Of a stretch of DNA of 64,000 nt, positions 6,070 through 57,810 are shown piece after piece. A model generated the notes under the pieces. That model saw nothing but the letters and a program-made list of their open reading frames with translations. It made no database searches and was not told where the DNA came from. How positions within the stretch are numbered: position 1 is the first letter of the stretch; every line of letters begins with the position of its first letter. A program made the position numbers and the translations under genes. Source of the DNA: Octopus sinensis. Lineage: Eukaryota. The stretch covers positions 51,832,001 to 51,896,000 of the forward strand of contig NC_043009.1 of assembly GCF_006345805.1 (NCBI RefSeq). Reading direction: 5' to 3'.

Positions 6070-6852
6070 CTATTTTTTCGTTATTTTTCTTTTGTCCTGC
6101 TCGCTTACGTTCTTGGTGTGTTGAATTAATTCTTGAGAACAATTCTTTGGTGGCGGATTCCCTTTGCGGTTCTATATCTAGCGTTAGAGCGTCCACATGG
6201 TGGACTCTCTCTTATTGTTTTGTATTAAAAATTTTTATTGTATCCCAGTCTTTTATACGCTAGGCCACTTGGTGTTTGTATTGATGTTACTAATTATCAT
6301 TCAATTTGTTCACCCTTATTTTGACTTTAATTATAAATCAATAAGTTCTCAAACCGGCAGTAAATTACTTAGGCAGTATTTACATCCGAGGATTTAGCGC
6401 GCCAGAATGAGGGCATTTGAATGTAACTGTGAATATAATCGGCTGTACCGTTTGTCTCGGTTCAACCTCGTGTGGATTTTGCCGTTCGGTCCGACAAATT
6501 ATATTCTGATGTACTCTACTGACGATTCGAAAATACTTATGTAAGTAAAATTATATAATCTATTAACGATGAAACAATTGTATAGAGTTAATCTATTTTT
6601 TCGTTATTTTTCACTTGTCCTGCTCGCTTACGTTCTTGGCGTGTTGAATTAATTCTTGAGAACAATTCTTTGGTGGCGGATTCCCTTTGCGGATCTATAT
6701 CTAGCGTTAGAGCGTCCACATAGTGGACTCTCTCTTATTGTTTTGTATTTATAATTTTTACTGTATCCCAGTCTTTTATACGCTAGGCCACTTGGTGTTT
6801 GAATTGATGTTACTAATTAATATTCAATTTTTTCACCCTTATTTTGTCTTTA
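6070..6852 (+). mobile_element. Non-coding partial-tandem element (523-bp period, ~260-bp direct repeats) with a hammerhead; Penelope pLTR-like or retrozyme-like
   Basis: 6070-6329 is repeated at 6593-6852. The unique middle carries the hammerhead at 6513-6588. The element ends ...ttttcacccttatttt next to TA-rich sequence. Confidence 0.8.
6513..6588 (+). ncRNA. Type I hammerhead ribozyme
   Basis: actcta CTGACGA T TCG-(37 nt)-CGA T GAAA C aatt G TA / tagagt. It has a 6-bp stem I, an intact core, a palindromic stem III (CAATTG) and a GUA cleavage site after 6582. Confidence 0.8.
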
Positions 6853-6891
6853 TATGTATATAACATTGCATTACATATATATACAGATATA

Positions 6892-8101
6892 GGAGGTTCG
6901 GCCGTAAAGTTTATTGGCTGACCGAGATGTTCTCATGAAATGTAACCAAATGAAGTTCAGATTCAACATAATCTCATTACAGTCCACACACTAAATCCAT
7001 CGGTGATGCAGTGCTTGCATCTCATTGGGGAAAAATCTTTCACACTGTTGGTCGAAGTCATAAACAGGATAACAGGTCAAAATCATGGTGATGCTGGTTC
7101 GCAACCAAGAGCTTTACCATGTTGGAGAACAAATGATTATGAGGGGGGGGCAAATCCGTAGACATATAATCCACAGTCACTCACGACAGCTAATGAAATC
7201 AAGGAATTGTATGCTGGAGCTTTCCTCTCATGGAACGAGACAATTTTCTTCTGAGTTCTTCGGCGTTTGGGACTTGACAGTGTTTCGTAACTGCCTCAGT
7301 AAGTTGGCATAGTACTTTCCGTTGATGGTGTTGCATTCTTTAGTCAATAAACACAATGCCCTTTGTATTCCAAAAAATTCCGAGGGCATCATCTTCCTGG
7401 CAAATTAAACAACTTTGTCCTTCTTTGGTGCAAGTAAGGAAAATTGTTTCTTTGTTTCTTGGTCAAAGTTATGATTCAAACACTCATCGTGAATTAAGAA
7501 ATATTCCAGGAAATGAGTTGGATCTGCTCCAATCAATGACAGACTTACTCTTGGTGTGATCAGACGTAACTCCCAATGAGCAGGAACCTTTGTCATGCTA
7601 AATTCATTGTGCAGAATATTTTTAACTCTCCCACGGCCTATGCTAATTGCCTTCGTTATTAGATATATGTAGTCAATCTCCTGTCATCTATCAGCAAGGT
7701 GTAAACACCGTCAATATTTTCCTCATTCGTGACAGTAGCAGGGCGTTCAAATCTGATGTCATCTTCTAGACTATCATTTCTCCTCCTAAACAGAGCCCAC
7801 TTTTCCACAGTTCACAAAGCTGGAGTACCATCTCCTAACGTAGTTACGATATGATCATGAATGCTCTTGAAGGCTAAACCTTTTTGTGCTACTATTTCCC
7901 AACATTACGACAGCGAGTTTTGTCCATTTTCAAGATAAGTCGCTACTAGTTACATTTGAATTCTTTTTTGAACAGTCAGATATCAGTTTACCTGGAAAGA
8001 AGCAATGCAGTTATTACCGAGAAGAATTGAAAATAAAGCAAACATTTCAGAACTAGAATCACTCCTTCATAGACAGCCAATGACCTTTACAGCCCATTCC
8101 G
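6892..8101 (-). mobile_element. Mariner-family DNA transposon, near full length, decayed transposase
   Basis: Imperfect TIRs (ggccgtaaagtttattggctg / cagccaatgacctttacagcc) flanked by TA. The minus-strand remnant starts MDKTR at 7927, includes SLEDDIRFERPATVT, and ends LHHRWI*CVDC...YVE, a typical mariner C-terminus. Confidence 0.85.
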
Positions 8102-8589
8102 TATATGTTTTTGTTTGCTTGTGTGTATGTGTATATATATATATATATATATATATATATATATATATATATATATATATATATGTAAATATGTATATAT
8201 ATACATATTTCAACGCATTTATGCAATTAGTGAATCATGTCAGCGACACGGAAATCTCGAGTGTAACATCCGGTGTGAATTTCTCTTCTGTACATCCATT
8301 GCCATTAAGATGCTTTTTCGAAGCAAATCAAATCCTAGATTCTGTTACTGTTGGTTGTTTCTCTCTCAACATGAAGTTGTCACTCACGATGATGGATGTT
8401 CTCTTTTACTTGAGTATTTAATCGTATTAAACTATATGATATTACTGACTGTCTATTTGGAAGTTGCAGTTCACAGCGAAACAGTGGAGACTTAAGTAAT
8501 GGCGAAAGAAATATATTTGTGCCCGGTTTCGTTGTTAATGTTTGTATAACTTTTGTTTCTCTTCTCTTGCTTTTGCTACTGTTTCCTTC

Positions 8590-54700: not shown

Positions 54701-55317
54701 TTCGTGTGATTAATAGTAGTAGTAACTTGACACCCGTTGCCTTTAGCCTAAGAACCCTCCGTGTTGCAAATACTCAACCGCGATCTCTTGTTTGAGAATA
54801 ACATGCTTCCTTCGTATCGATAGTTGATATCCTCTTGAAGTGTCGTGAGCCCTACTACTACTATACTACTACTACTACTACTACTACTACTACTACTACT
54901 ACTACTACTACTACTACTACTACTACTACTACTACTGCTGCTGCTGCTGCTACTGATGCTACTGCTACATTCACAATTCCAAATAACGTTAAAATTATTA
55001 AAATGTTGTCTATATTTCTTGCGTTGTGTGCTGTTCTGGTGGAAATCGTTTTAGATATACGTTGTTGGAAAGAAATCTGCTGTAGTTATGTCTGGAATAT
55101 CACTGAGATTAAGCGATGATTATGTGCTAAACAGCAATATGAAAACCAAAAAATACAACAACGAGTACAACGACAGCAAAAACAACCCTCGTTACACATA
55201 CGTGTGCATGTGTGTGTGCGTGTTTATGTGTGCGTGTGCGTGCTTGCGTGCATGTCTGAGTGCATGTGTTCATAAACCTGTCCGCACATGTATGTACACA
55301 AATATCGTTTATTATGT

Positions 55318-55925
55318 CTTTACTACCCACAAGGGGCTACACACAGAGGGGGGAAACAAGGAGAGATAAGCGGATTAAGTCGATTACATCGACTCCAGTG
55401 CGTAACTGGTACTTATTTAATCAATCCCGAAAGGATGAAAGGCAAGGTCAACCTCGGCGGAATTTGAACTCAGAACATAAAGACAGACGAAATGCTGCTA
55501 AGCATTTCGCCCAGTGTGCTAACGTTTCTTATTTCTTTACTGCCCACAAGGGGCTACACACGAGGGGGAGAAACAAGGAGAGACTAGCGGATTAAGTCGA
55601 TTGTATCGACTCCAGTGCGTAACTGGTACTTATTTAAACGACCTCGAAAGCATGAGAGGCAAAGTTGACCTCGGCGGAATTTGAACTCAGAACGTTGCGG
55701 CAGACGAAATACCTATTTCTTTATTACCCACAAGGGGCTAAACACAGAGGGGACAAACAAGGACAGACATAGGTATTAAGTCGATTACATCGACCCCAGT
55801 GTGTAACTGGTACGAAAGGATGAAAGGCAAAGTCGACCTCGGCGGAATTTGAACTCACAACGTAACGCAGACGAATTACCGCTAAGCATTTCGCCCGGCG
55901 TGCTAACGTTTCTGCCAGCTCGCTG
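55318..55925 (-). mobile_element. Three family A SINEs in head-to-tail tandem
   Basis: Units are ~55713-55925 (full), ~55530-55712 and ~55318-55529 (5'-clipped). Confidence 0.9.
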
Positions 55926-57010
55926 TCTTATCGTATAACGTTTATATAGAATGTTTATATAGATGGACGAATAACGTTTATATTGATGGACGCACTCTCA
56001 CATAAATCGTAATAACAGCTAAGCGTAGTTATACTAGCATGGAATCTAGTATAACACCTGTAATTCTATATGAATTTATAACCTAACTGATGGCATCATC
56101 AGCTATGGTGCAGGTGAAGTACTATATTGTCTTGTGTTAGCTTTTGCAAGAATATGAACATCGTTTGATAAAATTGCTGGTGGGTAGACTAAGAAAATAT
56201 GCAGTGAGTGTTTATAGTCAGTAAAACAAATATGCGTAGACTATTAAATGACATGTTCAATTACTTTGAAGATGGTTATATTAGTAATAATGAACGATTA
56301 AATATTCATATTATCTTGTTGTGCATGGAGGAAGTGAAAGTGTGATACTCGAAGAAGAACACAACAAAAGCTGGGACGGATCATTGCCTTACTACCAGAG
56401 AGCATACTTGTATAACAATAATTGTATTAGTGTATGTGTGTAAGTGCATGTGTGTGCAAATGTGTGCATGCACGCGTTTGTGAGTGTGTGCGTGTGTGGA
56501 ACTGAAATAATCTTTATCACGAACTTGCTAAGACCTTTCGCTGCATAAATAGTCTATAGAGAAAATCTTCTCATACACGACATACTTGCAAACATATCAC
56601 TGAACTATGAATTACATCACCGAACCTTAAGACGAATGTGTTTCTGCGCCGTTTTGCGTTATCATTTACATAATTCTTCTATTATCTCCCTTAGAAAGGC
56701 TGTTATTAAATGTAGACGCCAAAGAGATACCTTTGCTCATGAGCAGTTGCTTGATCAAAATATATTTAACTAACTGCAAGGGAACAAAGCTATGCGATCA
56801 TGAGACCGTATGCACGTAAGATCTTTCGTTGCAGAAATATTCTCGGTGCAAAATGGTGAGCGTATTCAAAAAGTGTTAAAAATTATTGCTCACAACCATA
56901 TCGTGTTAAAGGCTCCTTTTTGCAACACAAAATAATGTAACATATATATATATATATATATATATAATATATATATATATTATATATATATATATATAAT
57001 ATATATATAT

Positions 57011-57810
57011 ATAATTTCAACAATTGAGGGTAAAATTAATTAATTAATCAATTTCACCAGTATTCAGTATGCAAAGGGACCATTTAAGGCGAATTCAAAT
57101 TATTACATTATATAAAAGGGCTTAGTAAAATAAATTACTTTGCCGCATACTGAACTAATTAGAAATAGCAGCTAAAAAAAACTTTTTTAAAACTATTTCC
57201 AATACTTAAAGAAAACCTCTCTCATATAGTGTTTCTCAATTCAACTCACGCAAATATGGGGGTAGAGAGAGACATTAAAAAATCAAGTGCAAAGGTTATT
57301 TGAGAACGTACGTTTCAAGATTAGTCAAAATTCGACATTTCTATCATCAGCTCAGAACTCCCTGGTTTGGATTTGAAAACACTGAAAGTAGGAGCATACC
57401 CTTTCGGCTTCCTCTCGCTTCTGAAGATCTGCTCGTAACTAACAGTGCCAACAAACTCAAAAATGCAGCGAAGAATTTCTGCTCTCCCCTTTCCACCAGC
57501 GTGGGTTAAAATCAGTAAACACTATGCTTTTTTCGGTAAGATCCGCGGCATTATATAGAGAGAGATGAATTATAATTTCAACAATTGAGGGTAAAATTAA
57601 TTAATTAATCAATTTCACCAGTATTCAGTATGCAAAGGGACCATTTAAGGCGAATTCAAATTATTACATTATATAAAAGGGCTTAGTAAAATAAATTACT
57701 TTGCCGCATACTGAACTCATTAGAAATAGCAGCTAAAAAAAACTTTTTTAAAACTATTTCCAATACTTAAAGAAAACCTCTCTCATATAGTGTTTGCTCA
57801 ATTCAACTCA
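57011..57810 (-). mobile_element. Non-coding partial-tandem element (561-bp period, ~238-bp direct repeats) with a hammerhead, inserted in (TA)n
   Basis: 57011-57248 is repeated near-identically at 57572-57810. The unique middle carries the hammerhead. (TA)n lies on both flanks. Confidence 0.85.
57301..57354 (-). ncRNA. Type I hammerhead ribozyme
   Basis: tgag CTGATGA T AGA aat GTCGA-att-TTGAC taa TCT T GAAA C gtac G TT / ctca. It has a 4-bp stem I, an intact core, a palindromic stem III (CGTACG) and a GUU site. Confidence 0.75.

Follow-up and report, generated by a model that had tools for sequence, protein, structure and literature searches.

Animal retrozymes that lack long terminal repeats (non-LTR retrozymes) make circular RNAs, and Penelope-like elements (PLEs) have been proposed as their mobilisers (PMC7229834). 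A preprint surveying vertebrates treats retrozymes as non-autonomous PLE derivatives, arguing from co-occurrence and from trees of the pseudo-LTRs (pLTRs; 10.64898/2026.07.22.740005). In PLEs a 'tail' lies between two start sites of the reverse transcriptase (RT), both target strands are cut and a dimer is predicted (PMC11167929); the tail measures 30–40 bp and is often found at one end only (PMC8557442, PMC3846280). We describe two elements, A and B, in a 64,000-nucleotide stretch of the Octopus sinensis genome (the window; contig NC_043009.1, positions 51,832,001 to 51,896,000, forward strand), which is microsatellite-rich animal DNA from an assembly of 2.7 Gb. Comparison with their genomic copies identifies A and B, with high confidence, as non-LTR retrozymes, that is, as non-autonomous Penelope-like elements, a class already described. 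The copies further suggest that both were probably copied in trans by an RT/GIY-YIG protein of the Neptune type, from a predicted circular monomer RNA and with coupled priming at two sites.

Like the retrozymes of coral, mussel and axolotl (PMC7229834) and of the vertebrate survey (10.64898/2026.07.22.740005), A and B consist of tandem units that are non-coding and bear a single type I hammerhead, are low in GC and are dispersed in thousands of copies. Their units of 523–561 nt compare with 150–450 nt (PMC7229834) and 51–972 nt (10.64898/2026.07.22.740005) in described retrozymes. The direct repeats of A (6094–6329 and 6617–6852) are 95.3% identical with a period of 523 bp, a low-complexity start extending the repeat to 6070; those of B (57014–57248 and 57575–57810) are 99.2% identical with a period of 561 bp (self-BLAST). 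A first-pass annotation, made from the window alone, had claimed this repeat–unique–repeat layout for both elements, and also that neither is coding. Both claims stand: the longest ATG-led frame comprises 66 residues in the window copy of A, 31 in that of B and 38 in a B array, which leaves no protein-coding capacity, and the ORF (open reading frame) for RT plus GIY-YIG that distinguishes autonomous PLEs (Neptune, Poseidon) is not present in A or B. The proposed partial-tandem architecture is right as to the repeats and is corrected as to its form, which is a 5′-truncated tandem of one unit. The proposal of one candidate family was not upheld, as A and B are two families unrelated in primary sequence (local score of 24 against a shuffle mean of 23, terminal motif included). 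The terminal motif said to be shared persists as a hairpin closed by GGU/ACC and followed by CU at the long site, and not as significant sequence similarity. A tRNA-derived short interspersed element (SINE) was rejected as a candidate class, as neither element has a tRNA-like head (ARAGORN, no tRNA; Rfam).

Both families are abundant. Exact matches to a 26-mer of B number 4,674 in the genome (reversed control, 0), and those to a 28-mer of A that spans the hammerhead number 125; the candidate numbers from a first look, 2,606 and 1,989, are not copy numbers. The elements are dispersed in the genome, and their duplications are not specific to one locus. B has subfamilies, the youngest with units of 543–544 bp and full units 97–100% identical. 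Non-coding sister families with hammerheads of their own were found for B (C and D) and for A (E and F). Among the 100 matches listed for A, at least 27 hammerheads lie in one 350-kb cluster (G000:C27:12.50–12.85 Mb), spaced 1.5–33 kb apart and probably carried by segmental or gene-cluster duplication.

The copies carry the insertion pattern of PLEs. Both families form partial tandems with variable 5′ ends and fixed 3′ ends, a PLE trait, and each has two such 3′ ends, at unit positions ~471 and 557–561 in B and 424 and 523 in A. The 90–100 nt between them correspond to the Penelope 'tail'. B insertions were sampled in order of position (36 of 38 B clusters among the first 100 matches listed on contig C1). 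Two arms joined head-to-head make up 26 of these 36 insertions and a single arm the other 10, and 30 of 49 A loci are two-armed. The two arms of an insertion almost always end at different 3′ sites (68/71 in B overall, 25/30 in A); in the position-ordered B sample this holds for 24 of 26, for which a fair coin would give a probability of about 5e-6. The two-arm count excludes L269 (cut by the edge of its stretch), L268 (an odd arm of 52 nt) and L165 (non-contiguous). Among single arms both ends occur (B, 16 long and 6 short; A, 11 long, 7 short and 1 other). The 3′ flank of B is (TA)n in 60 of 62 position-ordered arms and in 106 of 108 arms of a selected sample. In the window, B has (TA)n on both sides and A a TA-rich 3′ flank only, and the two window copies would be single-armed, long-end products of 1.5 and 1.4 turns.

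Arm lengths roughly halve with each unit, 32, 15, 8 and 1 of 62 arms exceeding one, two, three and four units, and follow one smooth geometric decay from 60 to 2,603 nt. B arrays reach 19 units, and arms reach 8.9 kb in the selected set. The earlier proposals of copying beyond one unit length and of a preference for (TA)n are thus borne out, as is that of a non-autonomous element mobilised by Penelope. Arm junctions frequently overlap by 1–14 nt and a few are near-symmetric. This would suit an inverted arm that arose when a single cDNA or template primed itself or folded back, a route considered for rotifer PLEs (PMC3846280), and not from priming at the two target ends. This origin is nevertheless quite improbable: either arm may be the longer, the two 5′ ends usually lie far apart in the unit, fold-back does not predict the one short and one long outer end, and the register it implies, counted from the centre outwards, is matched by two of eight cross-arm variants, no better than chance.

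Partial tandems, a head-to-head inverted 5′-truncated arm, a tail often at one end only, a minimal hammerhead with palindromic stem III and microsatellite targets are all shared with canonical endonuclease-bearing (EN+) PLEs of the Neptune clade (PMC8557442, PMC3846280, PMC4209133). A and B differ from these in having no ORF, in a tail of ~90–100 nt rather than 30–40 and in the length of their arrays. The two fixed ends, the tail, the two-armed insertions and the (TA)n targeting are undescribed for retrozymes in the available parts of PMC7229834 and 10.64898/2026.07.22.740005. A literature search that left most subscription papers and the repeat databases outside its scope found no report of tails, of a one-site-per-arm rule or of paired hairpins in retrozymes; the two families may already be catalogued somewhere.

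All four 3′ ends are preceded by a stem-loop plus CU, with a modal gap of 8–15 nt to the TA run (Table 1). In both units, the lowest z of a sliding scan falls on the long-site hairpin (−4.0 in A and −4.8 in B). The short-site hairpin is the second-best window in A; that of B is weak alone (z of −2.1) and is backed by compensatory changes in C and D. Hairpin pairs are retained across the sister families in 99% of cells in one alignment (10 related sequences) and in 89% in the other (9). The two alignments hold six and seven compensatory cells, reached in 0 of 500 shuffles each, although these counts are not probabilities, because the structures were derived from the same 10 and 9 sequences. In vitro, the anole Poseidon element PAc likewise has two internal RT start sites downstream of its hammerhead that define the tail, and it shares with A and B an AT-rich target and a stem-loop at the start region (PMC11167929). 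It differs in that its start site is the same for both target strands, whereas two-armed copies of A and B almost always use one site each, and in that each start site of A and B follows its own hairpin plus CU.

Table 1. Positions in the window of the features of elements A and B.
Element	Feature	Positions	Strand
A	Partial unit, 5′-truncated (unit positions 264–523)	6070..6329	+
A	Full 523-bp unit, ends at long 3′ site	6330..6852	+
A	Predicted minimal hammerhead, type I; ACTCTA/TAGAGT as stem I, CTGACGA...GAAA as core, U·U at stem II base, palindromic stem III	6513..6588	+
A	Short-site stem-loop; short-end copies stop at ~6753	6709..6733	+
A	Tail, ~99 nt, between the two fixed 3′ ends	6754..6852	+
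A	Stem-loop of the long site, with GGUG/CACC closure and then CU; lowest z among 95 windows of 50 nt	6794..6837	+
B	(TA)n target at 3′ end	56942..57013	
B	Tail, ~90 nt, between the two fixed 3′ ends	57011..57103	-
B	Full 561-bp unit, ends at long 3′ site	57014..57574	-
B	Stem-loop of the long site, with GGU/ACC closure and then CU; lowest z among 103 windows of 50 nt	57029..57058	-
B	Short-site stem-loop GGC..AGUAA/UUACU..GCC, then CU; short-end copies stop at ~57104	57119..57144	-
B	Predicted minimal hammerhead, type I; TGAG/CTCA as stem I, CTGATGA...GAAA as core, U·U at stem II base, palindromic stem III	57301..57354	-
B	Partial unit, 5′-truncated (unit positions 327–561)	57575..57810	-
B	(TA)n at 5′ junction	57810..57933	

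That each unique segment holds one type I hammerhead, as first annotated, agrees with a strict descriptor, which finds exactly these two in the window and none in any of 100 local shuffles; Rfam gave no hammerhead at the gathering threshold or at E ≤ 10. Both motifs are minimal, with a stem I of 4–6 bp, CUGANGA and GAAA cores and an 8-nt palindrome as stem III. The core of A lies at 6519, with a 6-bp stem I, ACAATTGT as stem III and cleavage predicted after 6582; that of B lies at 57350 on the minus strand, with a 4-bp stem I, ACGTACGT as stem III and cleavage predicted after 57305. The minimal form is that of PLEs, unlike the hammerheads of animal retrozymes, although axolotl HHR_Amex2 shares the U·U at the base of stem II (PMC7229834). 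Across families A to F the cores are kept and the stems have changed and still pair. Consecutive hammerheads in tandem units occur in B arrays and in the A dimers L020, L021 and L027, each window copy having one.

Further hammerhead-like motifs were seen in the same DNA. A near-perfect inverted repeat at window positions 18382–18512, adjoining TA-rich DNA, contains a third hammerhead-like core (18443, minus strand) that was missed in the first-pass annotation; its stem III is longer and not palindromic, and the repeat may represent a very short insertion, with two arms, of a different family. Over ten additional families of minimal hammerheads, differing in their stems, came to light in the flanks of loci L011–L418, which gives this genome a large uncatalogued set.

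The nature of the template was approached through variation among units. Units of B differ by 0.9% within an arm, 1.1% across the arms of one insertion and 3.8% between insertions; owing to the youth of the subfamilies, only 70 of 157 units (12 ties) have their nearest neighbour within the same insertion. Of the 43 insertions from the two large B subfamilies that are two-armed and multi-unit, 15 have a variant that all units share, in one arm and the other, and that is absent from the other sampled insertions of the subfamily (22 such array-wide private variants, seven of them in one divergent copy; 32 haplotypes in the 43 insertions). The remaining variants are mostly singletons, 304 against 22 that are shared within one arm. 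The 5′ ends are not piled up at the predicted cleavage site (3/170 in B, 4/79 in A), which is unchanged in 136 of 167 units. Hence a cut linear monomer did not serve as the template. Low divergence within insertions, array-wide variants, length decay and the unscarred site point, as far as sequence can, to one unit reiterated at insertion, as on a closed circle. When a natural B monomer was shuffled 100 times, no shuffle folded as well as the monomer. No RNA record is listed as a holder of the sequence. Contigs of four presumed-RNA runs (four studies) cover 25–30 of 30 bins of the B unit and hold no informative joints or ends; contigs cannot show circles, and these count neither for nor against them.

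Insertions might instead have begun as short pLTR-like monomers or partial tandems, the arrays growing later by unequal exchange in the manner of satellites, a route proposed in 10.64898/2026.07.22.740005. The 22 variants common to several units of one arm, found mostly in long arrays, do indicate some exchange or assembly mixing. As a general origin this route seems improbable, given that singletons dominate, as expected for units made at once, that both arms are often multi-unit with precise outer ends and that lengths decay smoothly.

Several observations weigh against a cleaved, circular template copied by a Neptune-type protein. Only 26 of the 71 two-armed B insertions come from the position-ordered sample. 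Privacy of variants is defined among ~70 sampled insertions, and variants of long arrays may include assembly errors. Six of eight unit-specific cross-arm variants occupy the same rank from the outer 3′ ends (permutation P of 0.03; counted per insertion, 5/7, P of 0.10, suggestive and not significant). The U·U at the base of stem II may weaken both ribozymes; eight of nine Xenopus retrozyme dimers did not cleave (10.64898/2026.07.22.740005), and an anole PLE in vitro used unprocessed RNA as its dominant substrate and did not need the ribozyme (PMC11167929). Finally, nine 3′ regions and one 5′ region of coding PLEs, compared with A and B, gave no similarity above shuffles, in searches not aimed specifically at Naiad elements. 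The rank matches and the anole substrate favour a different template, an uncleaved linear multimeric transcript of a tandem locus, used by the same elements with the same two-site priming and with some other role or none for the ribozyme; the unscarred cleavage site fits this equally. We regard that template as unlikely, though a serious contender. Alone, it cannot make a new variant array-wide or lengthen arrays, and the 15 insertions and 32 haplotypes described above do show such variants. By rough rates, private variants that span a whole array are commoner (22 in 19,819 sites) than those shared by rank (6 to 8 in ~51,000 alignment columns). Hammerhead cores are also kept across A to F, the stems having changed without losing their pairing. 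The six rank-matched and 22 within-arm variants imply that multimeric templates, later exchange or assembly mixing contribute.

Candidate partners were sought among the coding PLEs of the genome. A protein search gave at least 120 relatives among the matches listed, which were used as tblastn probes, and 150 of 5,029 GIY-YIG candidates were scored. Several Neptune-type families were found, some intact; the intact PLEs are 98–99% identical and encode ORF1 and a 781-residue RT/GIY-YIG ORF with the CX4CxxC linker that marks Neptune (PMC8557442). The coding Neptune-type PLEs, too, end in (TA)n. One short and one long arm are seen at no fewer than two of their loci (L321 and L349), and the hammerhead of family N2 has the U·U seen in A and B. 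At L318:4817–5800 (G000:C5), a 5′-truncated, long-end coding arm of family N4 is joined head-to-head to a short-end arm of E with no TA between them. Such a join is expected if an N4 protein moved RNA of the A clade, and is a possible fingerprint of trans-mobilisation; because it is rare (one of 30 N4 loci and one of 30 E loci) and N4 has its own pLTR, it counts as an anecdote only.

A and B have all the hallmarks of pLTRs (hammerhead, tail and inverted arms) and might therefore be truncated pLTR stubs of coding PLEs. This is highly unlikely. Their units stand head-to-tail with no ORF between, and the arrays already contradict it. Thirty loci each of C, D and E have no upstream ORF of their own, the upstream sequence continuing into non-coding unit sequence or stopping. 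No coding PLE examined has A or B ends, and, in keeping with the first-pass annotation, no examined copy of A, B, C or D is the pLTR of a coding element. The non-autonomous Chlamys elements such as MRC1 (PMC8557442) are comparable as non-coding PLE dependants with pLTRs and multicopy head-to-tail insertions. At their 3′ ends those elements are mostly similar to the autonomous partner, and hammerheads are absent from most Chlamys elements. A and B, by contrast, carry hammerheads, and none of the coding PLEs found in this genome resembles them in sequence or was identified as their partner.

The coding families have features of their own. A young intact Neptune-type family (L111:1640–6455, L114 and L117) has overlapping ORF1 (479 residues) and ORF2 (781 residues). 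Its hammerhead is of the U3-A8 variant, which, like minimal hammerheads, was described in PMC4209133, and its 3′ region resembles an LTR promoter in having repeats of the TGACGTC and ATTGG boxes ahead of a TATA box. The 3′ regions of two coding PLE families (L331–L357, which are N4, and L319 with L145) can be read, by eye, as hammerheads with A3 and U8 in the core, which would be a third pairing of that position. In the window, a decayed RT frame (39688–40617, minus strand; RVT_1, E of 9e-7) belongs to an old, broken PLE-like family; considered as a partner, it was rejected, as it leads to old, broken families without the ends of A or B.

Copying of A and B in trans from a circle could proceed as follows. 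Tandem copies would be transcribed into multimers, in which adjacent hammerheads would pair by way of the palindromic stem III, their cleavage giving RNA of unit length, and a host ligase would close the circle. A PLE protein, probably dimeric, would bind the two hairpins 90–100 nt apart and cut both (TA)n strands, and one cDNA would be primed from each target end, one at each hairpin site. Each RT would then round the circle for a geometrically distributed length, after which the two cDNA ends would be joined head-to-head, often by microhomology, or one arm would be joined to the target. More tentatively, a dimeric, telomerase-like RT could clamp the two hairpins on one circular ribozyme RNA and roll round it, with hairpin-CU as a structure-only mobilisation signal for the unrelated and long-lived lineages A/E/F and B/C/D; we offer this as a conjecture somewhat less likely to be right than wrong.

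The window contains other repeats. Three 498-bp blocks at 44951–47229, 99.8–100% identical and separated by (AAT)n/(AAG)n, are a local duplication or an assembly effect; the frame that follows resembles the endonuclease end of an R4/Dong-type non-LTR element (Pfam negative). A dispersed family of 170–240-bp repeats, 80–94% identical and in both orientations (26610–26836, 28568–28736, 31221–31461, 32266–32440, 36076–36302 and 55303–55929), is likely a SINE. An imperfect 460-bp inverted repeat lies between (TA)n runs at 32695–33152.

The case that animal retrozymes depend on PLEs has so far been built on co-occurrence, on ribozymes in common and on similar pLTRs; in A and B it is the insertions that bear the PLE signature. 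The class and its link to PLEs are already in print, and what the copies add is that the open mechanism is testable. The retrozyme mechanism is still to be worked out (10.64898/2026.07.22.740005), and the origin of PLE tails and inverted arms is likewise an open question. A young family with thousands of units, a 90-nt gap separating its two structured start sites and a near-strict one-site-per-arm rule makes sharp predictions for an in vitro PLE assay, and the families offer a genomic test of rolling-circle reverse transcription. If the conjecture of a clamped circle is true, non-coding lineages use PLE proteins without sequence similarity to them, the hairpin-CU pair would be a signal that could be transferred to any circular RNA to insert it into microsatellites, and these families would record, copy by copy, a missing step of Penelope biology.

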